Shown here: one piece after another, positions 84-34,793 of the stretch
How the letters are laid out: every line of letters begins with the position of its first letter
Numbering within the stretch: position 1 is the first letter of the stretch
Made by a program: the position numbers and the translations under genes
Notes under the pieces: generated by a model
What the model was told of the DNA's origin: nothing
The model's input: the letters and a program-made list of their open reading frames with translations, nothing else
The model's database searches: none
Assembly: GCA_965153455.1 (NCBI GenBank)
Contig: OZ234493.1
Location: 35,640,213-35,704,212 of the forward strand
Direction: 5' to 3'
Length of the DNA: 64,000 bases
From: Sphagnum compactum
Lineage: Eukaryota

Positions 84-2594
84 ACTTAAAAGACAATTTT
101 AATCTTCTATGAATTGTCTACTTCTTAGATTTTTGCAATATCTACTTCCTAGTAGAGTTTGCAAGAATCTTACTCACAAGTATTTCAGTTTCGGGTTTTA
201 GCTCAGAATATGCTCTTTGAATATCTGCTGCATAACACTACAAGAGTCCCAAATCACAACATTGAGGGAAACATGAAAGCGAAAGGATTTTGTCATAAAA
301 ATGGGCACTGGATTAGCTGAAAAGGAGAGAAGAACCCCAGAAAAAGAAAAAGATGCAGAGCATGTCATGATCAAGACCATGACAAGAACTTGTATACAAC
401 CAAAGGAGTGCACAAGAGGGATGAAGATTATACCTGATCCTGGAACCTCTATGAGTCATCACAGAAAACCACTTTGTACACAGCTTGGCTGTTTGAGGTC
501 AGTGGCTGTATCAAGCATTTCCAATAGTAACTCCCAAGTTTTCCACATATTCAGCTCAACCATTAAATAGCCACACCCTGCTTGACAAGCCTGAAGAATC
601 AGGAGCATGGGTTGTTGCTTATAGAAACAACCTAACAAACTACAACAATATTTGCTTATATCAGTGCGCCATCAAATGGAAGATTGCTGACACTGACTCT
701 TTGGTTGTTAGATGAGAATTGGTGACATCTGGAGAATTAAAATTGTAATTAAGAAATCCTTGAACTTATGAAATTTAATCTTCTTGAAGATTAAGAATTT
801 CTCAGTTATGATTTTAGTCAACCTCCAACTTATGAAAAATGTAAGGACACATTCTTGTATTTGGGCATGAAACATAATCCTACAAGGATTCTGAAACCAC
901 TACATAGAAGCTTGTGCTCTGCATTGACAAGTTTGAGAGAAGAAACATTATGTGCAATGGTGTTGCTATGGAGTTTCTTATATCTGCATGCCTTCAGCAC
1001 CTCCTTCAACCAACTATACTGTGATCCAGGCACAACTATTAGGAATATTCTTCCACTTTACTGTTTACAACCTAAGAAAGGGCATCAAATCTCATCACTT
1101 TGAAGAAAGAAAAAATTCAGAGCTGCAAATTGCAAAGGGCAGAGTTCCAATATGGCAGGATATCAAGCACAATTCATCAGAATCTCTAACATCAAAGACA
1201 ATAATGTTGGTTGTATCATGTAACAGAAACAAGCTGCAAAGCATCCTAGCAACATTGAGTTTTTTGCCTTCCATAGCTGCTGCAGTGTCAGCAAATCCCT
1301 CCACAGATCCATGGTAATCAGAAATAGAGGTTTCCTTCAAGCTGCACTTCACATAAACACTCCTGTGACAGCTCATGATGGCCTTTCTTCTCTCACCTGC
1401 ATTATAGGTATAATATACCACAATAACAAAAGTAAACCAAACCAGAACAAGGTTTTAACTTCCTCATCATCCCTGCCAAAGATCAAACTCACACTCTGAG
1501 CAGTAGCTTCCAAGTGTCTTCCAAGCTGCTAATAAATTGCCTTCAAACTATTTTATTGTAATGGAAACTCAAACAATGCACAAATTTCCTAATGGAGACA
1601 GACCCAAAAGGCTGAAGGCATTGCAAAGAATTTTACAAGAGTTCATCAGGTTTGAAACACCTGAAATGGCCAAGACTCGGAGAAGAAACAAGCCACTAGG
1701 GCCCTGTTGGTGGGAGGAGGCATGGGACAGTATCAATCGTGCATCACAAAGGGGAAAGTGGCTTCATGATACTTTTATGGACAACCCTCCCCCCTCTTCT
1801 TGAATGCACTTAGATTTGCCCAAGCAGCAAATGGGTGTGCACAAATCCAAAAATAACACCTACATTGATAGTACATTGTGCTTGCTCCTTCGACCAGACT
1901 TCAGTAGAAGGCCTCCTAGTGTGCATGTGACTTCAGCAACATGTATACCACCAGCAAGGTGGTGGTTGAAGTCTTTTCTCCCAATGATGGCAAAGCTAAA
2001 TTACTCAATCCACAGTTGGTTAGGAGGATCATTGTAAGGGAGAGAGGGAGCTAACAATCACTTTTTCTCTTGGCAAAGGTGTCAAAGACATCAGTTGGCT
2101 TGAACAAGTAAAGAGCAACCAAGCTGAGAGCCAAGTCACCAATAAGACTCCCACCACAGCACCTGCCAGAAACTTGCTTTTTTTGGAGCTGGGTGGAATA
2201 TAGTCTGCAACAATGTTCACACCCAGAGCAACAATTCCCTCAAATCGCCGAAGTCAAGAAATCTTCCTTTCCAGTGCATCAGGATGGCAGACATGCTCCA
2301 ATTCCCTGAAACCAGCACATAGGCACTACAAATACCCAAAAATTGGAAGAAAGCATAAGCACAGATAAGCATTGTACCAAGCATTTTACTCATAATATAA
2401 AAGGACCAAAATAGGCCCTTGGCTTAGTCAAGAGGCAGGTTGCCTTTGTTCATAAGATGAGAGCACGTGAACTGAAAAGGTGAAATGCAAGTGACATTTG
2501 ATTGGATTCTGGCAGGTAAGAGATCCTACAGGCACATGGTATGAGATTTTGAAACTCCTTTATATCAGCCACTACAATGATTCACTTGGGTGAG

Positions 2595-3240
2595 AAGGGA
2601 AGGAAGGTCAAGGGTTGGGTGACATGGGTTTAAGGGTTTTAGGAAGACGAAAGGAACAACATCAAGGATTGGCTGGCATTGATTTAGGGTTTAGGGCTTT
2701 AGGAAGAGAAAGGAAAGAAGGTCTAGGGTTGGGTGGCATGGGTTTAGGGTTTTTAGGAAGACAAAGGAAATAAGATCCAGGGTTGGGTGGCATGGATTTA
2801 GGGTTTAGGGTTTTAGGAAGACAAAGGAAAGAAGGTCTAAGGTTTGGTGACATGGGTTTAGGGTTTTAAGAAGACAAAGGAAACAAGGTTTAGGGTTGGG
2901 TGGCATGGGTTTAGGGGTTTTCAGAAAACAAAGGAAATAAGGTCTAGGGTTGGGTGGCATGGGTTTAGGGTTTTAGGAAGAGAAAGGAAAGAAGGTCTAG
3001 GATTGGGTGACATGGGTTTAGGGTTTTAGGAAGACAAAGGTAAGAAGGTCTAGGGTTGGGTGGCATGGGTTTACGGTTTTTCGGAAGATGAAGGAAATAA
3101 GATCTAGGGTTGGGTGGCATGAGTTTAGGGTTGGGTGAAATGGGTTTAGGGTTTTAGGAAGACCAAGGAAAAAAGGTATAAGGTTTGGTGACTTGTTATT
3201 ATCATTTAGGGCCTTAGGAAGATGAGGGAAAGAAGGTCTG
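2595..3240 (+). repeat. 53-60-bp G-rich minisatellite containing plant telomere motifs (~11 copies)
   Basis: Consensus GGAAGACAAAGGAAAGAAGGTCTAGGGTTGGGTGGCATGGGTTTAGGGTTTTA. Unit starts are near 2702, 2756, 2816, 2869, 2976, 3029 and 3083; longer units carry an extra TTTAGGG. Confidence 0.9.
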
Positions 3241-4373
3241 GCGTTGCAAGAGGCAACATAGGAACTAATTCTCACCCAACTGAATAACTAATTATTGTTT
3301 GTCATCATTTCTTCATGGATGATAATTAGATAGAATCAAACACGTTTGAGATGAAGCGCACTCACACCTTACCCCAAGTTTGAGAACTGGCTTAGATGAA
3401 TGAAGGTTGATGAATGTTTCATTGAAGTAGTTAACAAACTTCTATCCTTACACAATTTCCTCATCCATTTTGGAATATGATATAATAACAAACTAGCATG
3501 CCCTAACTGTGAATTGCACCCACAAGCTGTTGTTGCATGAGTGCCAACCATTTGCAATTTTGTTTTGATGGTAATTGATTTGATGTGCTTTGATCAAGAT
3601 GACTATGTGGATTGAAATTCATTCCTTAAAGGGTTTCATCCACTGAGTACACACCTTTTTCCCTTCCCTACTATGTCCAAATCTCAATGTGAAATCGGAT
3701 CTGATGAGTTTTATAATAGGTATTCATACCTCATCTTCTTTCTTCAGAAATCAGAAGAACTCTGGTGTGAGCTACCTATAGAACTAGTATAATTACTCTC
3801 GAACCTTGTAGGTACCTCAACCCATAACCAATTTTTCACAAACCTTTTCTTTTCTGGACTACTAAAATCACCAAACAAAAAGAAGAAGCTAGCTAAGCTA
3901 CAAGAACCAACAGCTCATACATTACAAGTAAAATTTTGTTTTTGTCTGGAGTGCTGTCAAGAAGTCAAGAGGAAATGGGTGGCCTTTTAAATGTTCCATG
4001 TGACCTTGCAAAGTCATTGTTGACAAAAGAGTTGAAGGGTTCTTCATCTTCTTCTCCTTCTTACAGGTAATGGGATTTGCCATCATTGCCTGCCTGACTC
4101 CCTACCTTATGACCTGCCCTAAAGCAAACTTCAAAGTCTTCAGCATTCATACACACCTGGGCCCCATCATCCCCTTGTGATATGTGTGTAGAAAGGCTGT
4201 GTGTCATGCCCCACTGGAATTTCAAAGAAATCTAATAAAAAAGTGAGGAAAACACAGCACCAGAGTTTGGTCATACACGGGTTGGAAATTCAAAAAAAAA
4301 AAAACACCTGGAAAAAAGTACATCAGCATTCAAGGGGGTTGAAACTCAGCAAACCATCAATTTTGGTAGTAAA

Positions 4374-13986: not shown

Positions 13987-14678
13987 CCTCTCCCCTAGAG
14001 TTGAGAGTGAGGCTGATGAACAAGAAGTACAAATAAGTGGAAGAAATTTAGGGTTTAAAACCCACAACTAGGGTTTAGGGTTTAGGTTTGAGGTTTAGGA
14101 CACTAAACACTTCACTAATCTGAGATACGGTGATTTGTGATTAGGGACTAATTCTCCAGTACTGCTTATAACTACCCTGGTTACAACAGCAGCTCATGGG
14201 GTGGGGTGGGGTGGGTGCCATGAGGCAGCTGCAGCTGCTATAGAGTCTAGACAATGGACATATATTAATTACAGACTGTATCCTGTGTAATATATATCCT
14301 CGTGAAGTTCTCTCACTTCTTCACTCACAGTCTTGCACTGATCAGCATTGCTTCTGTGATTCACACCACCTGGTAGTTGCCACTGTTTTGCTAGAGCTGC
14401 ACTGTATTGGAATTCTTGGAGGAGTTGCACTTGTAGCTTCTAGCTCTGCAGGTCTTTCTTGCTTCTCCTTTTTCAGTAGCTCCCCAAGCTGTGTTGCTCA
14501 ATTCTGTTTTGTTGAGTAGTTCTAGCTAGTTTTCTTTCATCATTGTATCTTTTGTGCTGACTGAAGCTCTCACGAGGCTAGTTGGTTTTGATCTGTAAGT
14601 GTGGCTGTTGTTGTTGTTGTAGGTGATCTGCATTGTCAGTACGTGGATTGTCACTGCTTCTGCTGCGAGTTGAGCAAG

Positions 14679-15257
14679 ATGGAGAAAGGAGCATTGCTGC
14701 TGTTTGTGGCTGTGGTCACGTTGGGCTGCATGACAATGGGAGCAGAGAGTCGTCCGCTGTCAAGGGGCTCTAAGAAGGATTTGTCCACCATCTTGGGATT
14801 TTTTAGTCCGTGGTGCTCACCTCCCCCGGCAGCTCCATACTACGCCCCAGCTCCAGAAAATTACATTCCTCCCTACTCTGCTCCTGCTCCAGAAGAGTAT
14901 TATCCGCCTCCATCTCCAGTATATTCTTCTCCATCTCCAGTATATTCTTCTCCATCTCCGGTGTATTCTTCTCCATCTCCCGTGTATTCTTCTCCTTCGC
15001 CAGTGTACTCTTCTCCTTCACCAGTGTATTCCTCTCCATCTCCAGTGTATTCATCTCCTTCCCCTACCTATTCCCCATCGCCTGTGTACTCATCACCATC
15101 TCCAGTATACTCTAGTCCATCACCAGTGTATTCTTCACCGTCCCCAGTTTACTCTTCGCCATCTCCGGTGTACTCATCTCCTTCCCCGGTTTACTCATCA
15201 CCAGCTTACTCCTCCCCCTCACCAGTCTACTCGTCTCCAGCACCCGGAGGCTACTGA
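14679..15257 (+). CDS. Secreted extensin-like hydroxyproline-rich glycoprotein (SPVYSSP repeats), 192 aa
   Basis: ATG 14679, hydrophobic signal peptide [27 protein letters not shown], then YAPAP motifs, 14 copies of SPVYSSP with diverse synonymous codons, and a C-terminal Tyr before TGA. Confidence 0.88.
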
Positions 15258-21030: not shown

Positions 21031-22349
21031 CTTGTTGGAGAAACAAACGATTCCATTGATGTTTTGGGTAATGATCTTGAACTTGTTGTTGAAAATCATT
21101 ATGCAAAACATAAGTTGACATTTGACATTAGGGCCACTACTTAAGACAAAGAAAGAGAACAATTACATTTTGCTAGCAATCATTAAATACAAGTAGTTGC
21201 AGACCTTTAGTATGGAAAATGCTGCAAGTAATTGGAAGATGAGGTTCAATATCTCAATTGGGATTGGAGTCTACTCAAATTAAACAATGGAACTAAAAGC
21301 TTGCAAATTGACAAGTTGTGTACAGCAATTGGATAAGACATAAATGCATTGCAAAAACATGGCCAATGGTGTAAAGGATGATTGAAACCATTGAAGAAGC
21401 TTGACTCTTGTGGTAGGGCAATCCAAGTTCAAGAACATACCATGCATATGACTAACAATTGGAAGATTTTGCCAAAATATTTAGATTTCTCCAAAAAGCA
21501 GGCGAAGTCAATTTTTTCATTCTTTTCTGATTCACCCACTGAAGAGTTATCCAATGGCAAACATCAGTTGCAAGTACACTATAAGATACAATTAATATAT
21601 TTTGTTTTTGTGTGTGCAAGCAAACACCAAATCTCTTTTGTGAGTGGTACTTACAACTAGGTCACTAAGGTTCACAATTGATAACAAATTGGCTAGTCTG
21701 TGTGAAGAAGAGGACAAGTTGAAATGAACAAAAGGACATTAACATGATGAAAAAGCTGAAAAGTCATGGCGCAATACAAGTGAAGGTGTCCAAATGTTGG
21801 AGTACAAGAATGTCAACACGAGTATTCCATGAACAAAAGGAATTTACAAATATCTAGTGCAATGGAATCATGAATGCACAAACCTAAAAAGAAGAGAGCA
21901 TTGGAGAGAAGTTGGGGATGACCAAACTTAATAATTTGGTATAAACATGGTGAAGGGAAGAATTTTTTTGACAAAGGGTTATGGGTTCAAGTCATCCTCA
22001 GGAGTTACTAGAGTTCCATGAAGTGTGATGGATTTAGTAAGGTTTGTGAAGGTGCAAAATGCATGCCACATGCAGGGTTGAATTTTGGTCGTAATTGAAA
22101 AATAAAAATATCAATTAGTACCAAAGAAGGAAGAAAAAAATTGATGAAGATCCAGGCAATACAACAACAGTTCAGTAGACATCAACATCGGCAAAGCATA
22201 GCAAACATGGACAAGGAGCAAAGACAGTGTAGCAGTACCTGAACAGAAGACCATGTAGTGATCAAGTTGTTGCTTTTGTCCACGCATCAGAGAAGATCTG
22301 GCTTGGGGAAAGAGAAAAACAAACAATGGGTAGCTGGAGGATTTTTTTT

Positions 22350-25300
22350 TTATGCAGCATGGGCTACAGAGGTTGGTTGAAAGCTGGAACGGCATTGCTC
22401 TTCAAATTGCTGGTACTCCAACTCTGCTTGATCATCCCATGTGCAAGTCTTGAAAAATTGCTCCTCCCTTTCCTGCCAAATCAAAAAGTTTGTCGTCAAT
22501 TTTCCATGTCTTTTATGATGTTGAATATGGTTGCAAATTGAAGGATTCAAAAAATTAATAGGCTATTCAAGGTGTTTGTTTTAAACCTTTTCTGCTGATT
22601 TCACAGCTTCACGCTTTGCTATTTCAGCACCGCGTCCTTTTGCCCTTGTTTCTACATCAACTACCCATGCCTGCTGTCTCAAAAAGAAATTCTTCATGGC
22701 TGGCTTCTGTAAAATCCCAACCATATATGGACAAAACCTGGATCTGTTATAAGATGCACAAATTAAACACTATGCACAAAGGATCATCACTGATGTGAAA
22801 ACCAACCCTAAATCCTCAACCATTACCACTGACCCATTGACGGGCACTATGACCAACGCATGGATGATCAAACCTACACTTAGAAGGGATCATAAATGTG
22901 TGTTGTTGGCAACATCAAATAATTTTCTTGAGTGCAATTTGGTACTCAGAAAACATTTTGTCTAGGCTACTAAACATGTTGCAATTGATGAACACAGATA
23001 ATTTTGGTACTTCCTATCTCTGCATGTCTGTGTGATACATGAGTTTTTCAGGTGCTTTGTAGATTCCCCGCTGAGCTCAAGAGAATTTACTTTCAATGGA
23101 GAGCAAGCAGCAGATATGTCTTTCAAACCTCTTTGTAGGATGCTCGACGTAGAATTCTGGGGATTTCCATGATATGCAGGATGCCCTGTATGTCTCCGAC
23201 TGCTAGGAATTGGGGCGCTACCACCACATCACACAACATGGAAAACATCCACAATTAGGATGTGAACTGTGTCAATGAACTCTTAGATTACAAATCAATG
23301 CTCAACAACATCGCCTCAGGTACTATGATCCCTCTTGCATTGAAACAAGAAAGTATTAGACTCAAAGGTGAAGGTGCATATCAATGGGATCCATGTGTGC
23401 CTTAGAAGTCAAAGGCTTACAACAGTGGCTGCAAAGGCTTACTTGACAATTTCCAAAATTCCATGGATGTGAGTTGGCAGGAGCTAACAAGTGCTGTCAT
23501 TGATGGTTGGTGACTCTGGTCCAGCAAATCCCAGACTTCAATTGTTCCATCAATTAGCCCTATGTAAATAACTGCTGGTCGTGTTGGGCTCCAGCATCCA
23601 GTTGTCAAGTAACCTTCTGATGACCTTGATACATACATTGGTTTCTGCACAGTGATAAGCTGAACATGTTTATTTCCAGTTTCATGCCTGGTGGCTAGAC
23701 ATGAGCTCCATGGATTACAAATAGAGTTACTCTCATGATCTGTATAAGACATGAATGTCAATATTATGCTGCGTTTCAAACTAGAAAGGCTAAGTCCAGA
23801 GAGATTATTCTAGATGGGAACAAAGGAATTTAAACCTCAATGCCATCTCTCCAGAGCGCAAATGTCCATATGCCGACCGAAAGAATTACATTGTCAAAGA
23901 AAGGAGAGCGGAGGAGCACCCGCACGGGTCCCTGATGAACAGCTGTTATTCCTGTCACATTTGCTGCACCAGTTGGCATGTTCAGATCCACCTCCATTAC
24001 CTGCCCAAACTGTGGAACAAAAAAAATTACCTTAGTGAAGTTAGAGCTTCAGTAGTCCAGGTGCTTCCACTAGCCAATCATCTGATAGGACATTGATGTG
24101 TTGATGGGCAGTGAAAATATAATAAATCACTGACCTCTGTGCTACAATAGTAGGTTGTGCCCTTGAATCCCCGTGCCATTTTAAGAGGACCCACTTGTCG
24201 AGCAGGAGTTTCAGATTTCACGTCTATTTTGTAAAGAGGAGTCCATGCATATTTCTTCTCCTCAAAGGCAGCATATTTCCTCTCATCTGACCAAGATTCA
24301 TCAAGCTCCGGCTCATCCTTTTTGGTGACGTCCCAGAATGTGATCTATGCATTTCAGCAAGTTTGCTATGTTATACCACATTTTGAGTCACGGGCTTATA
24401 ATTCAAAAAATAAAAAGAAAAACCTCAAAATCACAAGCTTCTGTGGATGTGACATATTTTCTTCTATGGTGGGTGAATCTGATGATAAGAGAGGCTTTTT
24501 TCAAAAAATTGCTTACTGTTCCATCCACAGAGACAGATGCTATTAGGTTGGTCTCACCATTATTTTGAGCTCCTTCCACACCAAGCTGCAAAGAAAATAG
24601 ATAAAAACTGAAGGCTTGCAAAGTTTCATTTTATAAGAGATCACAAGAGAAAAGGATGTACTCTTTGTACTTTGAACAACTGTCGAATCATCGTAGAATT
24701 GTATGTATCAATTCCTCAACAATTTGTTGTTCCATTCTTCACACAAGAAAGCCTATTTTATTGACCACATGTATAAATCACAGTACTAGTTACATTTATG
24801 TACAGGAAGGATTGAAACACTTGAAATTTAAGAATTGGGTCCTTAGGTATGATATCAGTTATACCTGAAAATCCTTGGGGAGCCAGTGAATGTCAGAGAC
24901 AATTGCCTTGTGTGATGTCTTCATGGTGCTCAAAAGTGCGAACAAAACTACTGGTGTCATCGTCACTGATTTTTTTTTCTCCTTGTCTTCTGAGCTCTCC
25001 TCTGCCTCTCGCCTGTCTTTCCTGTCTTGTTTTTCCTGGGCTTTTGTGATATCCCACAATATCACCTGCATGCATGCTGGTAACGAAGTTTTCAATGAAT
25101 GGGTACAACACATGCGAAAAACTCTTCTCCACTCAATTGCACATAGTTGAAACATGAATACTAGACTTCTTGAATGGTGTTGTGAACTAGACTTGTTGAA
25201 GCTTGGGAGATATAATAGTAAGAGGCTTGGTGACAAGAAGGGGGTAACTGTGTTTCATACCTGGCCATTGTAGCAACCACCTGCAATGAGGTGTGGTTTC

Positions 25301-28300
25301 ACAGGGTTGAATCGTAAACTGAAAATGTCTGATGAGCTTTCTAATACCATCTGTCAAGCAAATTTCAAAAGCACAACTGAGAAAAGAAACTTGAGAGCTC
25401 CACAAGCTAGAGTATTTATGTTACACTTGTGAAAACTTATAAATGTCCCAGTGCACACAAATTTACCTCTTAGAACTGACAGGAGAAAAGAGAAATTGTG
25501 ATGATGAGAGAATTATTACCCAAGGATGGATTGGATCCTGGAAGGTCCACAGAAGAACATGTGAACTACATGGCCTTCCAGCCACCTGCACTCTTTCATC
25601 AAATGAACTTGAGGCAGAGACAGCTGCTGCAACAATCCCCCGTTTTCCAGGCATCCAATCAATTGCTGACACCATTTTACTCTTCCCATAATTGAGGTCC
25701 ATGAAGGATTGGAACTCCTGCAATAAGAGACCAAAAAAAAGAGAAAATAATTGTCTTTGGGATAATTGACAAATCAATCTGGTAATATCCAATTACTGGG
25801 TTTTTTGCTATCTCTGATTCATAGTGAATTTTGATTGTAGCAATTATACAGCTGTGATACATGACTAGGGGGAACAAATTTACAGAGACAGAGGTAATAG
25901 CATGATCTCCATGTTGGTAATCATCATCCACAAAGCTTGAAAAGTCATCCTCACACAGATCAAATAACTCGTTTTGTTGCAAAGCATCCACATATCTAAA
26001 GCCAACAACACCCATGACAGTTTCTGTCTCAACTTCCACATGTCCACCAGATCATATATTGCATATCTCGTACTGACGATGCATGCCATGTAAAATGGAG
26101 GGATTTTGGGAGTATATTTGATGAGGAGATAGACTTGGTCTAACCCAAAAACTATGGTTTTGAGCTATAGTTGGTTGAAACATGGAAAGAAAAAGAATTT
26201 ACTGGTCAGAATGAGTAGTACTTGGGTTTGGTGGCTGTGAGAAAATCACCCATTTCGTTGGAGCTCAGAACTGCTTTTGCTTCAGGAATTTCCATTGTGC
26301 GGGGCATGTATTGCACTTGATTGTTCCGATGGACCTTTCTGTAACACATGCCAGGAAACCCCCAAAAAGTCATCATTTCATCTCACAATGTTAAGCATCC
26401 CAGAATGAATGCTTAATTAAGCCTTGAAATCAATCATGAAACCTAGACCAATTGATTCCAGATCAGCTGCTAGATTCTGTTTGTCTGAGACAATATCTAG
26501 GCTTGGTTTTCCCATCCATACAGAGAAATCTTTGAAATTTACTTTGAAAATTATTTCATGCTCATGAGTGTTGAGATTTAACTTGACAAAAAGGTGCATT
26601 GGCAATTCCGCAGGATGTAATGCCATATAAGCAAGTCTATATAGGTTCTGCTGCATCTTAACTGGACAGTTTGGGCAGCAGTGTCTTTGGTGTCAGGAAT
26701 GGCTTGTGATGCTGTGTCTTGCTCAAGCATGTACTTATCAAAAGATGGGTCTTTAAAAGGCCGACACTCCATCTGGCTGCTGCTCCATGTTTCCTATTGG
26801 ATTCACCCAAGCTCCCTCAACATTTCACTCATGTAACCAACCAACTCAGAGCTTCATTCAGTTTGATAACACACTAATTTGCATAAATCAGATTTGGACC
26901 TTGGGAAAAAACATGCTGGTTCTGGGGTTGGATAATGAATCAAATATCTTTCATGAGAATAGAGAAATCTCCGTTCTCACGATGAAGAAGAAACAGCAAG
27001 GCTAACACTTCCTCAGGAAGCCACAGAAAGAACCAAACAAGGGAAGACAAGAAACAAAACACAAAACACTCACACCGGTAAGAACAAAAGTGCCAGTCTC
27101 ACACCTGTTCAGGGACCATCAACAGTAGTATGTATGATAGTGACTTAACTATCACAACTTCCCCACTGACTTCATCAGCTCCCTACAGTGGGTAAAGGCC
27201 GGTGACAAGCACCATCCTGCGAACTGAGTTTCTGCTGCAATTCGGAAGCAACGGGAAGACTCAGCCATACTACTGGCTAGCAACAGACACCACAACAAAG
27301 ACCAGACAAAGAAACAAAGAAAGACAGAAAGGGAAAGGACAGGGAAAGACAAAGAACAAGTGGGCTTACAGAAAGCTCCCCACTTACATGACCCGAAGCA
27401 AAATCATTCTGAAAATGCCAAAAGCTGAAATTCCAAAGAGGAATTTTTCTTTAAGAACCAACCCTCTAGTTCTCTTTAGAAGAACTTTAAAAGGGTAGCC
27501 TTTTGCCTTCAGAAAGACAATAAGACTGACCATCTGGAAGACAAAAAACTTCTTACAACTACAAAGTCTCAAGAACCTGTAAAATTGACTATTGATAACC
27601 CCGAGCTTCGCAGTCATTGAGATATTGGAATGAACGTGTGGCATTCTAATCATTTCAATACCTGCATACTCTGGTTGAGAGCGTTTATCAAAAATGTCAC
27701 AGGATAAACCTTGAGGACTCTGGCTCACAGTTAGATCCAAGAAATTACAAGAGAAGCCTTTAGATGTACAATTCAACTCGCAAGAGGTTTTTGGGTATAT
27801 GCCGCCACCAAAAGAGTCTTGGTTAAGGTACATGAAGTTCTCAAAATCTGGAAAATCTGGAACAAAAAGATCATCCACAAACCTACGAACCAAGGACAAA
27901 CTATGAAGCACAACAGGACATGTGTTACTCTTCAAGAGACGCTTAATGAAATCAAACTCATAGGTGAAGAGATAGAAATTAGCCAAATAGACCGCACAAT
28001 TTGTACCCATGGGGATACCAATGCATTGTCTATAAACACCCTGGCCAAAACAAAGAAACAAATTGTCTAATAAGAAATCCAGCCAAGAGATCAAATCTGA
28101 AGCCTCTGCAACTTTGAAGCTATGAAGATTTTCAAACAAATTGATCTCTGCTTTATTTTTCAGCCACAAAAACCTAAAGTTCAAAGCTGTTTTTTGAACC
28201 AACAAAAACTTAAAACGATGAAGCTTCAGCATCCGATTAAACACTTTATTTATCAGAACTCTCATACGAGCTTTTAGATCCACTAGGTCAATTTTAGTGT

Positions 28301-31300
28301 ATAGAGTTGAGAAATCAAAAGACTGCAATAGAAGTGGGGAGACCTTATCAATTTCAGATCTCGAACGATTAAGATTATTTATTACCTCCACCACTCCTGT
28401 AGAGTCATTGAGAATCCAACTACTATCACAAGGAACATCTGCTTTTTTGAGTTTAGACACCCAAAGGTCATTGACCGTAGGAAACATAGCTTTGAAGAAA
28501 GAACACAGCCACTTAGAAACATCAGACATCAGACAGAGAACTAGAATAATGTCTGGATAGATCTGTGTTTTGTTCACAGTCTGGATAATGAATCAAAATG
28601 TAATGAATATGGAGCATGTCTGCATACCAGAGAATCACGGTCTGCCAGGGCTATCTTTTGATAAAAATCCCGGCGTTTCTTTGTAGCCCTTATTAGAATC
28701 TGCAGAATGAATGCAAGTGGGTGCAGTATGTAAGTCTACGACATCTTGGAACAAGCAACTCTGCAGACTAGGAAAAATTCTAACATAAGTTTGTATTTGA
28801 TAGAAAGCCAATTTCATATTCAGACAACATTGATCTGGAAAGTTCTTTAACACAGAAACTAGAAGCCAGTTTTTGACTGGCTTCTGAGAATGCAGTGTCT
28901 GTACCTTAGCTTACATATCCTTCAGACTTGGTACCTACTTAACATACATGATTTGTTGGAATGGAATTTACAAATGAAAGTTGCAAAAGGGGCAAAGGGA
29001 CAAGGATGTTACTGGATCACGTGTGGCTGTAACAGATTCAGCCACAATTTCCGCCTCACTTCCAAGTGATATCCAGATTCGAGGTCCGCTTCCCCGAGTG
29101 TCTTCTTCAGCTAATTTTTCTGCAAGTGCCTTCACCATTCACAAGTACCCATCATCCCACACAGTTACATGCAACTCCTTCTGAAGAGATGAGTGTCCAA
29201 TGGGTGTCTGAAAACTCAACAACCCTCAACAAGAATTTCCATCACAAATGAAATTTCGAATGATGATCAAAAAGTTAAATTGCCACAGTGGCATTTGTTG
29301 TACAATTTTTATTTTATTTTCTCCTTTCCACCCATTTCAGTCTTTTGGCCTCCTCTCAATGAGAGATGAACTGTTTCCTTCTACAGACTTGCTACAATAT
29401 GCAAGTTGGAATTACGATCACCTCCACCCTGTGCACTTGTCCTGTCTCTTGGACTGTGAACAAAACACAGATCCATCCAGGTGTGTCAGAGAATGGAAAG
29501 GCAAACCTTTTCAATGCTCTCACGTTGCTCTTTGGTGCAAACAATTTCAAAATTATGATCATTGATGTAGCGGTCATCCCCAATGTACCGCAACAGGAAA
29601 GATTCCTCTGTGTAATTCTGGAATGACCTCAACAAACAAACCATGTGAGGAGGAGGAGGAGGAGGAGGAGCAGGCCCCATGAGAGTCCATGATTTGCAAA
29701 TATTTTCCATGTAAATGCAGTTCAAAGGATTTAACCATATTACAACAAAAAGGCAAGAAGAACACAAATGAAAAGCCTTTGCTGGAATCTTGAAGACAAA
29801 CTGAGTTATTCTTTTTAGGATGTGTAAAGTCTCTCAAACTGCTGCTTGATTTTTACAAGGTTTATTAGGGTCAAACCAACCATCAAGGAGCCTTTCACAA
29901 CGTGGAAATCAGAGATCGCGCCTTTGAGGCTAATGTCCTCCTTAACAGATTTTGTGTCAACCACAAAATGCTGATTATTTTTCACTTCTTTCTTGTCTAT
30001 GGAAAACATCTTGCAGGTAGAATCTGTAAGGTACAATGACACCACTCCAAATGGATGCTCCTCCGCAACTACCCACAACAACAACAACAACAAATTTCTC
30101 AAACAAGCAATCATTGTCATGCCAATGTCACAAAAAAACTAACATCATCACACTCTAACCCTAAATTATGAAAATTTCAACATGGTAAGTAGAGATGCAG
30201 ATACACTCCATTCATGTATTTGAATGCTTCCCAGTTAGCCCTTAATACAGAATTTGAACACAGATGCAAAATTCTCCAAAACCAGTATCAAAATTTACCT
30301 TCAATTTCAATGCAAAATGAAGTACAACTGAGCTGAATGAGAATGCACATGGGCAAATACTATTGTTTGGGATGTAATGATATTTGGCTGCAAATCAATC
30401 TGATTGCAATCATTGGTGAAAGAACAGAGCAGCTATTCTTTGCTTAAATGCTACAATGGTTTTAGAATGGAATTCAAAAGCCTGATGAAGTTGGAATCCT
30501 TGTCTATTTTGGAGTTGTCAACTGAAAAAACATAAATTCTCTGGAATCATGATCTACTTTGGAGTTCTTATCAAATGAAAAAAATCTGCACTCATGATCT
30601 TATCTTGGAGGAGTCGTCAAATGAAAAAAGAGCTCTAGTGCAATCAATCAAAAGGTGGTGGCTATGAGGATTTCTCTGCATTGTTCTCCCTACACTATTA
30701 ACTTTTGTGTTCTGCTAAGGATTTTGAGTGAGTTTTAGGCTCAGAGTTCATCTTATTGTCAAATGGAAAAAGATCTGGAATCAAAAGGCGTTCAGTGGGC
30801 ATGAGGAATATTTCTCTGAATTGTTCTCCCTACATTATTAACTTTTGTGTTTAGTTAAGGATTTTGAGTGAGTTTTAGGCTCAGAGTTCAACTTATTGTC
30901 AAATGGAAAAGCTCTGGATTCAAAAGGCGTTCAGTGGGCACGAGGAATACTTCTCTGAATTGGTTTCTTCCTACAGAGACATCTTGTGTTTTGTGAAGGA
31001 TCGTGTGTTTTGTGAGTTTTGTAATTTTGGACTCAATTGTGTACACTTTTGTAAGCTTTCTCATACACGTTTCAACTGTACAACAAATTTGTAAAAAGCT
31101 TCACTGCTACAAAGAACTGGACATGACATGATGATGATGATGATGGAAAAACCCTAATCCAAAGTAAGTTTCCCCTGGCAGCAGCAGCAACAACCAGAAA
31201 ACAAAATGCAGCAGGACGTACCTAGTTCCTACCTTCTTACCAATTGGGTGTTGGGCAGAAAGTAGGTAGGTACTCAAGTTGTGGGCATTGTTAGGTTACC

Positions 31301-31384
31301 TCGTGGTGGTGGTGTGGGAGGCTTCTCTACCTCCACAGGTTTTATGCCCAAAAGGGCCATCATCTCTGCTGACATCGTCGCCAT
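22350..31384 (-). CDS. WDR63: WD40 axonemal inner-arm dynein (I1/f) intermediate chain, WDR63/DNAI3/IC140-like; 18 exons, ~802 aa
   Basis: Hand-spliced with GT-AG introns and consistent phases. Exons: 31384-31300, 30068-29881, 29617-29507, 29129-29013 (acceptor least certain), 28699-28628, 26793-26663, 26338-26222, 25995-25884, 25717-25520, 25350-25261, 25065-24865, 24585-24517, 24344-24135, 24009-23836, 23644-23443, 23217-23129, 22706-22587, 22472-22350 (TAA). Total 2409 nt with no internal stop. Peptides resembling WDR63/IC140: GAISDFHVVK, WISLGSEAEI, ALQQNE, EFQSFMDL, LLWTFQDPIHP, IAGGCYNGQVILWDI, WSPTRPAV..G..DGTIEVWDLL, GILHIMEIP. Confidence 0.9.
27005..27385 (-). other. Putative 3' UTR / pseudo-LTR of the PLE with several stem-loops and pyrimidine-rich tracts
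   Basis: Inverted-repeat arms (plus-strand coordinates): 27358-27364/27379-27385, 27222-27229/27259-27266, 27162-27168/27186-27192, 27134-27141/27148-27155, and CTTCC-TCA-GGAAG at 27008-27020. U/C-rich tracts on the minus strand at ~27020-27070 and ~27290-27357. The left boundary is uncertain. Confidence 0.5.
27384..28529 (-). mobile_element. Penelope-like retroelement reverse transcriptase (Naiad/Chlamys-like), 5'-truncated, inside a WDR63 intron
   Basis: Uninterrupted ORF of ~380 codons (first in-frame ATG 28529, TAA at 27386-27384). RT motifs in order: WILNDS, motif A SFDFSTLYTKID, long A-B' insert, motif B' YRQCIGIPMGTNCAVYLANFYLFTYE, motif C RRFVDDL, motif E NFLDLTV, and thumb FDKR...PHVHSNI...GVINSQFYRFLRLCS...GY. 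There is no GIY-YIG after the thumb. The N-terminal RT motifs are missing because a host exon lies ~100 nt upstream. It sits within intron 28627-26794. Confidence 0.88.
30620..31040. repeat. ~140-bp tandem triplication in WDR63 intron 1
   Basis: GTCAAATG(G)AAAA..TCAAAAGG..TGAGGA..TTCTCTG..TTTTGTGTT..AAGGAT..GTGAGTTTT repeats with a ~140-bp period (units near 30620, 30760 and 30900). Confidence 0.8.
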
Positions 31385-34367
31385 GGCTGCAACCAAACTC
31401 TAAGCAGCAGCAGCAGGCTCTACAGTTCAACTTGCTTTGATTTTGAGACAGAAAAACAAGTAAAGATGCAGGAGAAGAAAAACAAACCCAAAACCGAGAC
31501 TCAGAAATAGAAAGAAAGAATCAATCACGATAGCTAGAAACTAAGAATCGCGCCCAAAATAATGCAAAGAGTTAGTTGCAAGTACTTGCAAGCTAATACT
31601 ATGGTTCATCAACCTGCAAAGCACACCCTTGAGGATTATGTCGAAGAAACCCAGTGAACGCAACAAACCAAGAGCCGAAAGAGGGCAAAAGAGGCTATGA
31701 ACAGACACACAAGAGAGAGAGAGAGAGAGGGAGAGAGATGGAAGCGGTTAATACGGTTGTGGGGTTATGGATGAACTGTCTACACCACAAGAGTATTATA
31801 ACCGTCGTCGGTGTCGTGGCAGTACTGCAGGAATATTTTCAGTTCTGAACTGCTAAGTGCAACTCCACCGGTGCTCAGTATGTGACCCTGAAAAAGAAAA
31901 TGGGATGAAGAAAAGTTAAAAACATGCCGGTTTGGCTCAGCAAAAAAAATGCTTTTGCCCCAGCTTTCACAGTTTGCTGAGGCTGGTGAAAGGTACAACA
32001 AAGCCTAACACCTGCTATTGATTGAACTAGATAGACGTTTGATTGGATCAGGTGGGTTGCTATTAGAAGTCTCCCCCAAATATTTGCATTCCTGGTTTTA
32101 GTTCTATCGGTGGGGTTGGGAAAAAGGTAAATAACTAAAACTTGGATGTGAGATATGTTTTTGCAGGGTCACATTCTGAGGACCGTTGGAGATGCTCTAA
32201 TATTGTAGAGTTATTAGCCTTTTGTCTTTGGATTCGTATGCGAAGCGGATTGACGCAGTACGTAAGTAGTAATTGTTTGTCTGGACATGAGGTGCGGTAG
32301 GTGATTCTATGATCGATTACTGGTCAGCAAACTCTTACGCAAGCTGGGAGTTACTCAATTAGCTGCAATCAAACCAAAACCAAATTCGGCATTGAATGCT
32401 GTTAAAGAGTTTTGGTGGTTTAGCTGGAGTACTGCGGGCAGGAGAGACGAGATTGAGCTGGATTCACGACGTTGCAGCTGACAAATCGATCATAGGCAGT
32501 GTTCTTTCTTTTTGGACCAATTTTCGCACTGTGCCTGACCAAAAAGAAACCAGTGCGAAATTGTACAAAGGCTTGCTTTTGGAAAAACAAATTTCGAAAA
32601 AGTCGCCATATTTAGACAATGTTGGTCGCCAGAACTAAGCAGGATTCCCCAGAAAAAAAACATAAAAACGTACTTCACTGTCTGACCTCTAGCCAAATTT
32701 GGCTCATTGCTCTTATGGATGATCGCCAATCCAGCTACTGGACAAATTTGAAAAGAAAAGGCCTTACCATAAGCCCAAGCAGAAGAGTCGTGAATAATGC
32801 GTAATGTCAGGCAGCAGCCGCTGCAGATGAAGTGAAGCTGAAGAGGCGACCCCCGCGCGATGGAAGAAGCTGCCTGGGGGGGGGGGGGGGTGGTGGAGCT
32901 CGAGATCAGCCGACATTTATGGAACTTGAAGAACTGCAGCTCGACAGGGGTTTACGTCTTGCACAAGCTTCGTGAGGCTTGAGCTGCTGCAGCAAGAGCA
33001 GTCACCGTAGTATGTGTGTATGTATGATCAGCTAGCTAGCTCGCGGCGGGTAACTTTCTTGTTTTTTCGCTACTGGCTAGCAGCTAGTCATGCCGCAGAT
33101 GCATCATGATCATCTGTGATAATTAAGTGTGCTGATGTGAAATGAAAGTCTCGGCTGATCAAATGCAGCTGTAATCTGTCAGAGCTGCTTCATAGCTGTA
33201 CTCGTAAATGCCACATGCAAAAAAAGCCAGGCCGCCATTAAATTACACTGTATCTGTAGATTGATCAGGACTCAGGAGTCCGATCTGCTGAGGCATGAGA
33301 GCAGCTGAGAATTACAACTTGCAGCAGTGCAGATCTAGCGGGAGTTGCAGGAGCCGATTGATGCAGCTGGTCATGAAGATCAGGAGCTGGAGACTCCAAG
33401 TCCTCGCCAGCTGCACTAGCTAGTTACAGTGATCAATCATGATTCCCGAACTGCACTGATCATCATGATCCACAGACGTAATTATCTGCAGCTGCTGGCC
33501 GCACTGCAGACAAGCTAGCTGCAGGATTCAGGACTAAGCTGAAGTTCAGCTGCAATGCTTAAATGATGCTCTGATCAACCCTCAGGTGCCAACAGCAGGA
33601 CTCGGCCATGACAGTCTTGTCATCATGTGCTGAGACTCCGCGATGATGTAGCTGTCACGAACTACTGCAACACACACACACACACACACACACTCTGTCT
33701 CTCTCATCTCTCTCCTCATCACTGTAACACATGAAGTGATCAGTCATAAGGGCGGAAGTGGGGAGGACTACAGTATAAAGTGCAGCGGCGAGGACTAGTA
33801 GCTAGCTAGCGGCAGGAGCACGTCTCAACAGTCAGTGATCATACAAAGCGCCACTGCAGGCACAGGCAACAGGTTGTGATGCGTTGCTGGTTGTTACAGT
33901 GACTAGAACATCCGACAGCATGTTTTTGTCTTGTTGTTAAGATCATGACTAGTAAGAGAAATTAGTGATGATCATTAGACTGGGTGTGAATAGCTAAGCA
34001 CGCTAGGGAGAGATCTGGTTTGGTGGAGATCAGATGGGGATTATAATTAGCCTACTAAAGCATGTCACAGCTGCAGCTTCGGTTGCAGTCGCGGCAGTAA
34101 AGAGTAGTCAATGCAGCTCATAGTATATATGATGCAGATATCCTCCATTTTCCTTCACAGCGCAGTTGTTGCAGTCCAGTTGCTTGCATTGATCATATTC
34201 TCAGCTTGAGTCTCTCTAGTGTATAGGCAGCAGCAGCACTACTACTTGGTGAGGAGGAGCAAGCATCAGTACTGTAACAGCAACTCTAGCTGCTGCAAAA
34301 GATCTGCGTGCACGTGCTCGCTGATCTAGACTGTGTGTGTGGATCAAGCTCGGCAAGTCTAGCAAAG

Positions 34368-34793
34368 ATGAAGGGAGTCGTCGCATTACTGCTGGTTGTG
34401 GCTCTTGTGATCATGGGGGTCGAGAGCCGTCCCTTGTTGAAGGGAACAGAGAAGAACCTGGAGGCTTTCGCAGGGTTGCTGCCGTCTTGTTCTCCAGCTC
34501 CAACTCCAGAACCAGAATACAGTTCACCATCCCCAGTCTACTCTTCACCAACGTATTCCTCTCCATCTCCAACCTATTCCTCTCCTTCTCCAACTTACTC
34601 TTCTCCAACCTACTCTTCCCCATCTCCAACCTATTCTTCTCCAACATACTCTTCCCCTTCTCCAACCTACTCTTCCCCATCTCCAACCTATTCTTCTCCA
34701 ACATACTCTTCCCCATCTCCAACCTACTCTTCTCCCACTTATTCTTCCCCAGCTCCCCCTCCATCCGAATGTCCTCCCCCCTTTAGCTACTAA
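34368..34793 (+). CDS. Secreted extensin-like HRGP (SPTYSSP/PTYSS repeats), 141 aa, paralog of 14679-15257
   Basis: ATG 34368, signal peptide MKGVVALLLVVALVIMGVES|RPL, then LKGTEKNL (cf. SRGSKKDL), a shared CSP motif, tandem (SP)TYSSP repeats and a C-terminal Tyr. Confidence 0.88.
   Translation: MKGVVALLLVVALVIMGVESRPLLKGTEKNLEAFAGLLPSCSPAPTPEPEYSSPSPVYSSPTYSSPSPTYSSPSPTYSSPTYSSPSPTYSSPTYSSPSPTYSSPSPTYSSPTYSSPSPTYSSPTYSSPAPPPSECPPPFSY

Follow-up and report, generated by a model that had tools for sequence, protein, structure and literature searches.

The longest reading frame of the 64-kb window (the whole stretch of DNA that was analysed) runs over 402 codons plus a stop, carries the motifs of a reverse transcriptase (RT) and lies inside an intron of a dynein gene; the runner-up is a low-complexity frame of 221 aa. 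This raises the question of which kind of element the frame belongs to, how it came to lie in the gene and why it is still open. Very probably, the frame represents the RT-thumb half of an autonomous Penelope-like element (PLE) with an N-terminal endonuclease (EN), of the Naiad/Chlamys type and with Chlamys-group features, in a copy that was truncated at its 5' end and dead on arrival. The coordinates are collected in Table 1.

Host gene and reverse transcriptase frame

Residues 3-802 of Sphagnum WDR63 proteins map onto the host gene, which encodes a dynein chain of the sperm flagellum, and further matches were found to Marchantia DNAI3, to IC140 in the PDB (8glv_AG, E 1.1e-15) and to human DNAI3 (8j07_k1). 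Two annotated WDR63 proteins of Sphagnum align at 100% identity to the exons on both sides of the intron (residues 168-191 at 28699-28628 and residues 192-235 at 26793-26662) and splice straight over the insertion. The match of an RNA contig of X15 begins at 28627, the intron edge. The intron is 1,834 nt long with the insertion and 181 nt without it. The splice sites and flanking exons confirmed the original prediction that the element was inserted sense-wise into intron 28627-26794 of a WDR63-like dynein gene, and the identical Sphagnum exons identify the presumed bryophyte host as a moss, either a peat moss or one of its very close relatives. The suggestion that insertion in a sperm-expressed gene would favour inheritance is speculative.

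The frame contains FDFSTLYTKID (motif A), GIPMGTNCA (motif B') and RRFVDDLF (motif C) together with a thumb, as predicted for a stop-free RT. It ends where relatives have their native C-terminus (the alignment reaches residue 935 of 938 in P0182 and residue 1046 of 1047 in P0183), in agreement with the earlier observation that the ORF halts right after the thumb. The first ~24 codons (28592-28520) are non-native junction sequence, consisting of intron flank with the target duplication, the 36-nt filler and frame-shifted element bases, so that the start previously set at 28529 comes close to that of the real RT. The distance from the D of motif A to the G of GIPMG is 99 residues, which is consistent with the ~80 aa previously counted between the motif ends.

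The AlphaFold2 model of the frame had a mean pLDDT of 91.7, with values below 50 at residues 1-17. When the model was compared with the PDB by Foldseek, telomerase RTs took every rank from 1 to 12 (E 1.4e-7 to 2.9e-4), while a group II RT was found at E 9.6e-4 and R2 at rank 37 (E 0.02). Judged by the predicted fold, the RT is nearer to telomerase RTs than to group II or R2 RTs. A sequence-profile search of the PDB with the family alignment gave no TERT match, and a Pfam scan of the window frame named no domain.

Table 1. Positions of the host gene, the insertion and its parts in the window
Feature	Position	Strand	Basis or remark
Host gene, WDR63 / DNAI3 / IC140, inner-arm dynein I1/f intermediate chain	22353..31378	-	extent per protein matches
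Host intron, GT...AG, phase 0	26794..28627	-	GT 28627-28626, AG 26795-26794
Whole insertion, 1,637 bp	26945..28581	-	36-nt filler, 5'-truncated body and 3' UTR; empty-site contigs
Upstream copy of 16-bp target-site duplication, TTTGATTCATTATCCA	28582..28597	-	identical strings
Downstream copy of 16-bp target-site duplication	26929..26944	-	identical to upstream copy
Filler ('tail') at 5' junction, 36 nt	28546..28581	-	matches no other family copy
Filler template, host intron sequence	29452..29480	+	~0.87 kb from insertion site
7-nt tandem duplication (TGTCTGA x2)	28522..28535	-	alignment; absent from four other copies
RT-thumb frame	27384..28592	-	native coding ~28521 down to 27387; stop 27386-27384
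Element 3' UTR	26945..27383	-	ends ...ATGAAAGATA, without poly(A)

Structure of the insertion and the empty site

The insertion is flanked by a perfect 16-bp target-site duplication, a string that occurs at these two positions only in the window. Contigs of three related organisms (X9, X13 and X12, one each) join 26928 to 28582 and skip 26929-28581. The missing 1,653 bp equal the insertion plus one 16-bp repeat, as expected of an empty site. The contig flanks differ from the window by ~1.0% (X9), 2.1% (X13) and 2.2% (X12). As only one 16-bp copy is present at the join, secondary precise deletion is an unlikely origin of the empty alleles. The copy entered the 181-nt WDR63/DNAI3 intron in the sense orientation, duplicated 16 bp of the target and left a 36-nt filler. 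Since the contigs of all three relatives show the empty site, the insertion is lineage-specific and later than the split from them.

The first 29 nt of the filler (28581-28553) are an inverted near-copy of the host template (28 of 29 positions identical, E 1.4e-9), and the empty-site contigs of X9 and X13 extend over the template as well. Owing to the TGTCTGA duplication, the ~10 element bases that precede it are out of frame. The 3' UTR corresponds to the part from which the pseudo-LTRs of full-length copies are formed, and the insertion target is not a microsatellite. The match to relatives is limited to their last ~380 of 940-1100 residues, and the genic site carries the target duplication; these results bore out the predicted 5' truncation and internal chromosomal position, and the proposed comparison of the orthologous intron yielded the empty site.

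Full-length copies and the N-terminal endonuclease

Family copies were represented by 80 metagenome-contig loci with 82-95% nt identity to the window copy, from which identity their membership of the same species is inferred. The homologue search gave 296 proteins at E<=0.001, many of them fragments 80-94% identical, and 5,142 representatives passed the same threshold in a wider search. Among named relatives, a protein of the fern Ceratopteris is the nearest (54% identity).

The locus L001, 95% identical to the window copy, contains a single frame of ~1,030 codons at 575-3670, interrupted by 2 internal stops and colinear with residues 2-935 of the 938 of P0182. A GIY-YIG domain stands at its N-terminus and the RT at its C-terminus, with a CxC linker and a long spacer between motifs A and B'. 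The GIY-YIG core VIYSVSNSRMLYVGQT is followed by GTKF, CAC (CxC) and DKC motifs, the CxC lying within GCACC ahead of a GTKF and DKC also being present in P0010 and P0138. In at least 10 other loci, homology to GIY-YIG-bearing N-termini immediately precedes the RT, either in one frame with it or at one locus. In an alignment of 20 sequences, the Y, Y-G-T, R, H and E residues, the CxC cysteines and DK were invariant or nearly so (the Y-G-T as YxGxT, with a conserved N besides), and both CxC cysteine columns were almost invariant in alignments A1, A2 and A3.

The profile of the 20-sequence alignment matched the I-TevI catalytic domain over profile positions 90-196 with a marginal E value of 0.0097. 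For the N-terminal domain of L001, modelled with AlphaFold2 (pLDDT 88.5), the 10 best PDB matches were GIY-YIG nucleases (I-TevI: E 2.6e-3, TM 0.72 on target). Pfam found nothing in either half of L001; of the 10 relatives that were scanned, 6 had a Pfam GIY-YIG match within their first 191 residues. The marginal profile E value, transitive homology and predicted fold together point to a GIY-YIG endonuclease in L001. Among the 147 homologues of at least 700 aa, the endonuclease was located in the N-terminal half in 117 and in the C-terminal half in 0, with none detected in 30.

In two loci the 3' ~500 bp is repeated upstream, at 4.16 kb (L026) and 3.82 kb (L035), giving pseudo-LTRs and a family unit length of 3.8-4.2 kb; no pseudo-LTRs were found within L001:1-5000. 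At the gathering score, Rfam 15 matched nothing in the window, L001, L026, L035, L002 or L060, and no hammerhead ribozyme was among the weak matches in 25500-30500 of the window and in L026:1-5400. None of the 80 loci has a fully open full-length frame, the longest element frame being 714 aa (L002). The insertions compared are dispersed with differing flanks and none is in rDNA; of 21 other 3' flanks inspected, none lies in a (CA)n or (C)n microsatellite. The original prediction of an N-terminal-EN PLE lineage was thus upheld by L001 and the long homologues, none of which has a C-terminal endonuclease, and the longer copies showed the anticipated GIY-YIG and CxC linker (L001) and pseudo-LTRs (L026 and L035).

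Placement within the Naiad/Chlamys elements

The GIY-YIG core of L001 contains 0 Cys, with 1 Cys in the 84 residues upstream, while all 76 proteins of the CC class (Naiad-like) have two or more core cysteines. The A-B' spacing of 99 in the window compares with a median of 84 in the CC class (81-90, n=58) and 94 in the Cys-free class (91-220, n=12). The window spacer exceeds those of all 58 CC-class proteins, in a comparison limited to the CC and Cys-free classes. A quick ML tree of the RT was built with 59 rows, including 20 of the 58 long CC-class proteins; it is unrooted, and curated reference sequences of Chlamys, Naiad, canonical PLEs and TERT are not among its rows. In this tree, whose backbone is weak, the window copy, L001, P0138 and the Ceratopteris protein formed a clade at a support of 100, outside a clan at 99 that holds all 20 CC rows. 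A sister position of the moss/fern clade to the Naiad-like clan was not rejected by the AU test (p-AU 0.358). The N-terminal endonuclease of the family, which lacks CCHH, its CxC, long spacer and pseudo-LTRs, the absence of a hammerhead and the telomerase-like RT fit the Chlamys group.

In the available part of Craig, Yushenova, Rodriguez & Arkhipova 2021 (PMC8557442), Chlamys elements are N-terminal EN+ PLEs of green algae, Chara and Physarum, 3.3-8.2 kb in length, many of which sit at (CA)n or (C)n. Their endonuclease is described there as lacking CCHH and CX2-5CxxC zinc-finger motifs, their DK motif as having a variable third residue, and their insertion-in-fingers domain (IFD), the lengthened stretch between motifs A and B', as longer than that of Naiads, whose proteins already carry one. 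The moss family shares with Chlamys, as so described, the one ORF, the N-terminal GIY-YIG without zinc-finger motifs, CxC, GxKF, DK, the long A-B' spacer, pseudo-LTRs, frequent 5' truncation, the lack of a canonical hammerhead and a length within the reported range. It differs from curated Chlamys, with which it was compared by traits and not by curated sequences, in its moss host and fern relative, and from many Chlamys in inserting outside (CA)n/(C)n microsatellites. In addition, the tail of the moss copy was demonstrably copied from nearby host DNA. Naiad elements, the invertebrate N-terminal EN+ PLEs of the same partial source (PMC8557442), resemble the moss family in domain order, CxC, IFD, pseudo-LTRs and lack of hammerheads, whereas they have DKA in place of DKC, a spacer of 81-90 in place of 99, and a CCHH motif that is missing from the moss GIY-YIG core.

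Among elements of land plants and other streptophytes, PLE-X of Selaginella and Chara, the EN-minus Chlamys branch, is similar in its streptophyte host, CxC and related RTs, but according to the same text (PMC8557442) it has no GIY-YIG, carries canonical hammerheads and in Selaginella occupies one 28S rDNA site, unlike the endonuclease-bearing, hammerhead-free and dispersed genic insertions of the moss. Dryad of conifers (Penelope/Poseidon group) represents the EN+ PLEs listed for land plants in the available part of PMC9033089, presumably acquired by horizontal transfer; it too is an endonuclease-bearing PLE of a land plant, but with the canonical C-terminal endonuclease instead of the N-terminal order, and the nearest named relative of the moss family is from a fern. 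The likeness to TERT lies in the 12 of 12 best structural matches and in an insertion between motifs A and B', the IFD position, whereas the sequence identity is 12-15%, the window fragment has no TEN or TRBD part, and the moss element is mobile, multi-copy and endonuclease-linked.

Age of the copy and its open frame

The window copy differs from the majority of 40 copies at 35 of 1,602 sites (2.2%). The in-frame differences are 15 synonymous and 7 non-synonymous, 2 of the 7 being in the duplicated 7-mer. Under neutral decay, 15 synonymous changes out of 20 would have a P of ~4e-5 to 4e-7, and such a bias is as expected of changes in active master copies before insertion. After 10 random substitutions the frame would still lack a stop with a probability of 0.67, and after 20 with one of 0.45. 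The frame remains open simply through the youth of the copy, which had been predicted and which the empty site in three relatives, the low divergence and the synonymous bias support. From its sequence, the copy is predicted to be unable to move alone because the endonuclease, start codon and promoter region are missing.

Alternative explanations

Several other readings were weighed against a Chlamys-group element. The frame might come from PLE-X, which would integrate without a GIY-YIG of its own; the window copy, lacking the N-terminal part, cannot itself reveal an endonuclease, and section 9 of Craig et al. 2021 (PMC8557442, available in part) mentions moss BlastP hits in the context of the PLE-X type. 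This origin is nevertheless improbable, since GIY-YIG-type N-termini precede the RT in L001 and the further loci, the hammerhead searches of the window and five loci were negative, and the insertions are dispersed outside rDNA, with PLE-X known here by its partial description. We regard as very unlikely a Naiad-type animal element that arrived by horizontal transfer or as contamination from moss-dwelling invertebrates. Look-alike clusters in the atlas, which serve as leads only, include Rotifera, Mollusca and Cnidaria (score 0.97), and the AU test is compatible with a sister position to the Naiad-like clan. However, the core cysteines shared by the CC class are absent, the spacer is longer than in that class, and the closest named protein is from a fern. 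Contamination is contradicted by the position of the copy within a plant gene, where a target duplication flanks it, and by the empty site seen in related plants.

The frame could also be kept open by selection, having been domesticated as an RT or exonised into the dynein transcript. In favour of this are its length, the greatest in the window, its orientation in sense to the dynein gene and the mostly synonymous nature of its differences from the family majority. Selection is still highly unlikely, as the insertion is missing in three close relatives, the frame begins with junction debris and has no native start, annotated proteins splice across it, and chance often leaves such a frame open. 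Pfam leaves the domain unnamed, so the class of the RT rests on other evidence. A LINE, group II or mitochondrial RT is contradicted by the telomerase RTs as best fold matches, ahead of group II and R2. A canonical PLE is at odds with the protein ending right after the thumb like its relatives and with the endonuclease positions in long homologues, and a telomeric EN-minus PLE with the internal, genic site; the chance that any of these classes applies is close to nil.

Proposed integration and significance

For the element of the Chlamys group, general knowledge of PLEs suggests that the family's GIY-YIG endonuclease would nick the target and that the RT would start at the 3' end of the element RNA and copy it by target-primed reverse transcription. 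In the window copy, cDNA synthesis would have halted ~2.3 kb short of the 5' end, which may then have been sealed by a repair step copying 29 nt of host DNA 0.87 kb away. If so, 5' junctions such as this inverted copy could reveal how PLE integration is completed.

The N-terminal-EN type, the rarer one among PLEs, has been mobile in mosses, and the very probable placement given above would extend the Chlamys-type host range to mosses, with a relative in a fern. We lean slightly towards the view that EN+ Chlamys-type PLEs are native to land plants and vertically kept there, at the least in peat mosses, with the 54%-identical relative in the fern Ceratopteris, and have transposed into Sphagnum genes since the splits of close species. 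If this is true, they would be the first embryophyte EN+ PLE lineage that can be explained without horizontal transfer from animals. Having transposed within the divergence time of close species, Chlamys-type PLEs may therefore still be active in Sphagnum.

A reverse transcriptase frame of a truncated Penelope-like element

The longest reading frame of the 64-kb window, with a 221-aa low-complexity frame as the runner-up, was found on the minus strand (see the table). Motifs A (FDFSTLYTKID), B' (GIPMGTNCA) and C (RRFVDDLF) of a reverse transcriptase (RT) are all present in its 402 codons, in agreement with the original prediction. At E<=0.001, relatives of the frame numbered 296 in a word-indexed search and 5,142 in an exhaustive search. 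The frame covers only the last ~380 residues of relatives of 940-1,100 aa, which bears out the proposed 5' truncation, and its stop corresponds to the C-terminus of the full-length relatives (aligned to residue 935 of 938 in the homologous protein P0182 and to residue 1046 of 1047 in P0183). The view that the frame ends right after the thumb was therefore correct. Pfam contained no family for the frame, and phmmer against PDB sequences returned antibody rows at chance level and nothing else. In the AlphaFold model of the frame (mean pLDDT 91.7), residues 1-17 scored below 50 and nearly all others above 85.

Features of the host gene and the inserted element
Feature	Position	Strand	Remark
Host gene, WDR63 protein match	31378 to 22353	minus	colinear; many exons 95-100%
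Host intron, phase 0	28627-26794	minus, as element	GT 28627-28626, AG 26795-26794
Insertion, 1,637 bp	28581-26945	minus	empty-site contigs and 16-bp direct repeat
Stop-to-stop RT frame	27384..28592	minus	402 codons

The host gene

The frame of the downstream exon matched Chlamydomonas IC140 (8glv_AG, E 1.1e-15) and human DNAI3/WDR63 (8j07_k1, 9fqr_Hw), and three other host-gene frames searched against the PDB gave no match. Orthologues of this exon were found in Riccia (81%), Marchantia ('dynein axonemal intermediate chain 3', 80%), Calypogeia (80%) and Ceratopteris (75%). One transcript matched the exon at 96%, and its 90%-identity cluster includes two annotated Sphagnum WDR63 proteins of 802 aa, from Sphagnum jensenii and S. 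troendelagicum. WDR63 residues 168-191 and 192-235 correspond to 28699-28628 and 26793-26662, both at 100%, and in the annotated Sphagnum protein the exon junction falls between ALADRDSL and ETWSSSQ. Since the flanking exons are identical and the ends are GT and AG, the intron is confirmed, and the predicted sense insertion into a WDR63-like intron holds. Without the insertion the intron would measure 181 nt. The exon matches identify the source as a peat moss (Sphagnum) or a very close relative, and RNA runs labelled as moss or plant metagenome, which contained 35-38% of the sampled words, agree with this. In a moss, this dynein is presumably used only in sperm flagella; according to the original prediction, insertion into such a gene might favour inheritance.

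No evidence for transcription of the element was obtained from the RNA run X15, in which the ratio of summed depth between element and flank was similar in magnitude to that of the DNA runs; RNA libraries such as X15 can contain DNA. One RNA contig of X15 begins to match at 28627, after 130 leading letters.

Several other features were observed around the gene. Between mapped dynein exons, a 140-bp unit is repeated 2.2 times at 30670-30975 (91% matches). Just downstream of the last mapped dynein exon, contigs of X15 and of the DNA run X9 carry 34 extra letters between 21980 and 21981, an indel relative to the window. Two plus-strand frames of 221 and 167 aa (14592-15257 and 34290-34793), each have a hydrophobic N-terminal region ahead of SPSPVYSSP / SPSPTYSSP repeats and resemble proline-rich wall proteins of the extensin type; arrays of 21-57-nt tandem units at 34539-34756 overlap the second frame.

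Boundaries of the insertion and the empty site

Contigs from public runs were placed on window positions 21500-30600, using DNA runs of three related organisms (X9, X13 and X12) and X15. In each of the three DNA runs, one long contig (7.8, 8.8 and 6.2 kb for X9, X13 and X12, respectively) joined 26928 directly to 28582, with flanks diverging from the window by ~1.0%, 2.1% and 2.2%. The join omits 1,653 bases, and 16 letters fit both sides. These letters form a perfect 16-bp direct repeat, TTTGATTCATTATCCA (minus strand), whose only two occurrences in the window are at 28597-28582 and 26944-26929. The contig join and the repeat therefore define an insertion flanked by a target-site duplication of 16 bp. 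Comparison of the orthologous intron, as proposed with the original prediction, thus found the element missing from all three contigs: three relatives retain the empty insertion site.

Homology to the family, as determined by blastn against 80 related loci, spans ~28545 down to 26942-26944, and the best identities to the window copy were 95.5%, 95.1% and 95.0% (family copies L009, L002 and L001 on metagenome contigs, respectively). The 3' end, ...ATGAAAGATA, is a sharply conserved family terminus without poly(A), and the sequence beyond it varies from copy to copy (22 rows compared). A microsatellite next to the family 3' end was seen in 0 of 21 rows, with 45 nt shown for each and the 22nd row cut by the locus end.

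At the 5' junction, the initial 36 nt of the insertion (28581-28546) matched no other family copy. The first 29 nt of this filler are an inverted near-copy of 29452-29480 on the plus strand (28/29 identical, E 1.4e-9), which is located 0.87 kb from the insertion in a different intron of this gene. The X9 and X13 contigs with the empty site extend over that region as well. Near the start of the element homology, TGTCTGA occurs twice in tandem (28535-28522), a 7-nt duplication absent from four other copies. Because the filler and the duplication occupy the junction, the first ~24 codons of the RT frame are junction debris, open by chance. A 'tail' of 30-40 bp at one end of PLE insertions is described in the available portion of Craig et al. 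2021 (PMC8557442), and the filler is comparable to it as described there in size and place. The filler may have been made by a templated repair step.

Age of the copy

Compared with the majority base at each site among 40 related copies, the window copy differed at 35 of 1,602 sites (2.2%). Within the frame, 22 of 1,159 sites differed, 15 synonymously and 7 non-synonymously; two of the latter fall within the 7-mer duplication and depend on the alignment. Random substitutions in the window frame would be synonymous in 21% of cases, and the probability of 15 synonymous differences among 20 ranged from ~4e-7 (p = 0.21) to 3e-4 (p = 0.35). This excess indicates that most differences predate the insertion and arose in active source copies while these were under selection, with little neutral decay since. 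Hence, together with the three empty sites, the data bear out the claim of a young copy. With few neutral hits since insertion, the open frame is unremarkable (the probability of no stop after 10 random substitutions is 0.67). No fully open full-length frame was found in the 80 loci, the longest being 714 aa (L002).

Two other readings of the copy were considered. Contamination would place the sequence outside the plant genome, and was rejected because the copy lies inside a plant gene with a target-site duplication, while relatives carry the empty site. Exaptation, in which the open frame would be kept as a host function, was likewise rejected: three relatives do without the insertion, the start of the frame is debris, and an open frame is likely by chance.

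Architecture of the family

Of 131 confirmed stretches in one scan, 80 were kept as family loci, all on metagenome contigs. In L001, the unit is a single frame of ~1,030 codons with two internal stops, colinear with residues 2-935 of P0182. Its N-terminal part contains a GIY-YIG-like core, VIYSVSNSRMLYVGQT. In an alignment of 20 sequences covering this part (A1), the GIY-YIG positions Y, Y-G-T, R, H and E were invariant or nearly so, and the A1 profile gave the catalytic domain of I-TevI as the sole meaningful PDB match (E 0.0097). The ten best Foldseek matches to the AlphaFold2 model of the L001 endonuclease (EN) domain (pLDDT 88.5) were all GIY-YIG nucleases, including I-TevI, T4 EndoII, UvrC and Hpy188I (best E 2.6e-3, TM 0.72 on target). 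Pfam found no match on the L001 frames, GIY-YIG included; among ten full-length relatives, it placed GIY-YIG at the N-terminus (residues up to 191) in six, two of them above the curated cut-off. Downstream of the EN, L001 carries GTKF, a CxC motif (CAC) and DKC; motifs of the GTKF, CxC and DK types are diagnostic according to the accessible text of Craig et al. 2021 (PMC8557442). Pseudo-LTRs were found in L026 and L035, where the 3' ~500 bp are repeated 4.16 and 3.82 kb upstream, and none in L001:1-5000. The upstream GIY-YIG, CxC linker and pseudo-LTRs suggested for a search were thus all located within the family. No Rfam family, hammerheads included, matched the window or five loci.

These data also bear on the identity of the element. 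A LINE or group II origin was rejected on the predicted fold, since telomerase RTs occupied ranks 1-12 in the structure search with the RT model, and group II RT and R2 ranked lower; by sequence, no TERT was found with the A1 profile. A PLE with a C-terminal EN was rejected as well: among 147 homologues of at least 700 aa, the EN lay in the N-terminal half in 117 and in the C-terminal half in none, and was not detected in 30. Together with the EN-CxC-RT order of L001, these counts support the N-terminal-EN PLE lineage originally proposed.

Repeats spaced by 193 bp were observed upstream of the ORF (L026:182-251, 375-444 and 1356-1425; L035:704-1000; L060:4505-4801), and several Chlamys families are lengthened by tandem repeats, as stated in the available part of Craig et al. 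2021 (PMC8557442). Over the element (26668-28491), the summed depth of contigs peaked in bin 26972-27275 and dropped toward the 5' side in all four runs (X9 sums, which are not copy numbers: 51,355, 16,690, 16,241, 9,898 and 7,071; flanks ~41), as expected from heavy 5' truncation or extra pseudo-LTR copies. Close copies are annotated 'hypothetical protein' or lack a name. One protein named 'superfamily II DNA/RNA helicase' (P0072, 367 aa, on a 1.5-kb metagenome contig) has a C-terminal part that shares 99% identity with 27% of the window frame, and is probably a chimeric gene call across a family copy inserted beside or inside a helicase gene.

Placement relative to Chlamys and Naiad

The homologues form two EN classes, one of 76 proteins with at least two core cysteines (CC class, e.g. 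IYLITCRKCRLQYVGET) versus 19 proteins with fewer than two. The CCHH trait belongs to Naiads and canonical PLEs in the portion available of Craig et al. 2021 (PMC8557442). The L001 EN has no core Cys, and one Cys in the 84 residues upstream; judged from these residues, it is Chlamys-like. The spacer between motifs A and B' is 99 residues in the window frame, in the homologue P0138 and in a fern protein, compared with 81-90 in the CC class (median 84, n=58) and 91-220 in the Cys-free class (median 94, n=12). This length agrees with the longer insertion in fingers (IFD) of Chlamys given in the same available text (PMC8557442).

Placement was examined with a quick ML tree, whose 59 RT rows comprised 20 of the 58 long CC-class proteins (every third one when ranked by score, with 38 omitted), 14 Cys-free proteins, 23 lacking a classified core, the window and L001. 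In this unrooted tree with a weak backbone, all 20 CC rows fell in one clan (support 99), and the window, L001, P0138 and Ceratopteris KAH7429046 formed a clade (support 100) outside it, among Cys-free lineages. The AU test did not reject the alternative in which the moss/fern clade and the CC clan are sisters (log-likelihood difference 4.28, p-AU 0.358). Since the tree was built without curated Chlamys, Naiad, PLE-X, canonical PLE and TERT sequences, the Chlamys label is based mainly on the EN traits, the spacer and the host. A Chlamys-type N-terminal-EN PLE family in peat moss, seen as a recent genic insertion, is the supported interpretation.

Relatives outside the mosses were also observed. 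An annotated gene model of Ceratopteris richardii, KP509_09G028400 (P0025/P0146), has four isoforms of 157-527 aa. It shares 54% identity with the window RT across 99% of that RT, clusters with the moss family (support 100), and resembles an element from this lineage that was taken for a host gene in annotation. Outside plants, the closest full-length relative is a transcript of the ichthyosporean Amoebidium parasiticum (P0182/P0463, EukProt; 35% over 95% of the frame). Its N-terminal GIY-YIG core has one Cys and is not of the two-cysteine Naiad type, and the transcript may represent a Chlamys-like element of a unicellular lineage related to animals. Look-alike clusters in the ESM Atlas from rotifers, molluscs, green algae and cnidarians are leads, not evidence.

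Significance

Land-plant PLEs, according to the accessible part of a review (PMC9033089), comprise only EN-minus elements (Selaginella, conifers) and, in conifers, Dryads that were presumably gained through horizontal transfer. The curated Chlamys hosts in the available text of Craig et al. 2021 (PMC8557442) are green algae, Mesostigma, Chlorokybus, Chara, Selaginella and Physarum, and that portion of the 2021 Naiad/Chlamys description contains no curated moss or fern family. The literature searched did not describe EN+ PLEs from mosses or ferns, and supplements, Repbase or Dfam may already contain such families. What is newly added is a gene-internal, dated insertion, with the site empty in three relatives, and a family with complete EN-CxC-RT architecture. 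Within the field this is an extension and no new principle.

The family is numerous in peat-moss-associated data, as reflected by the number of stretches confirmed in a single scan. Because it is also Pfam-negative (window and L001) and its close copies lack informative names, a curated model would improve the annotation of moss genomes and moss metagenomes. The finding places recent activity of an ancient telomerase-related class of retroelements within bryophytes, and connects land plants with the Chlamys elements of algae.
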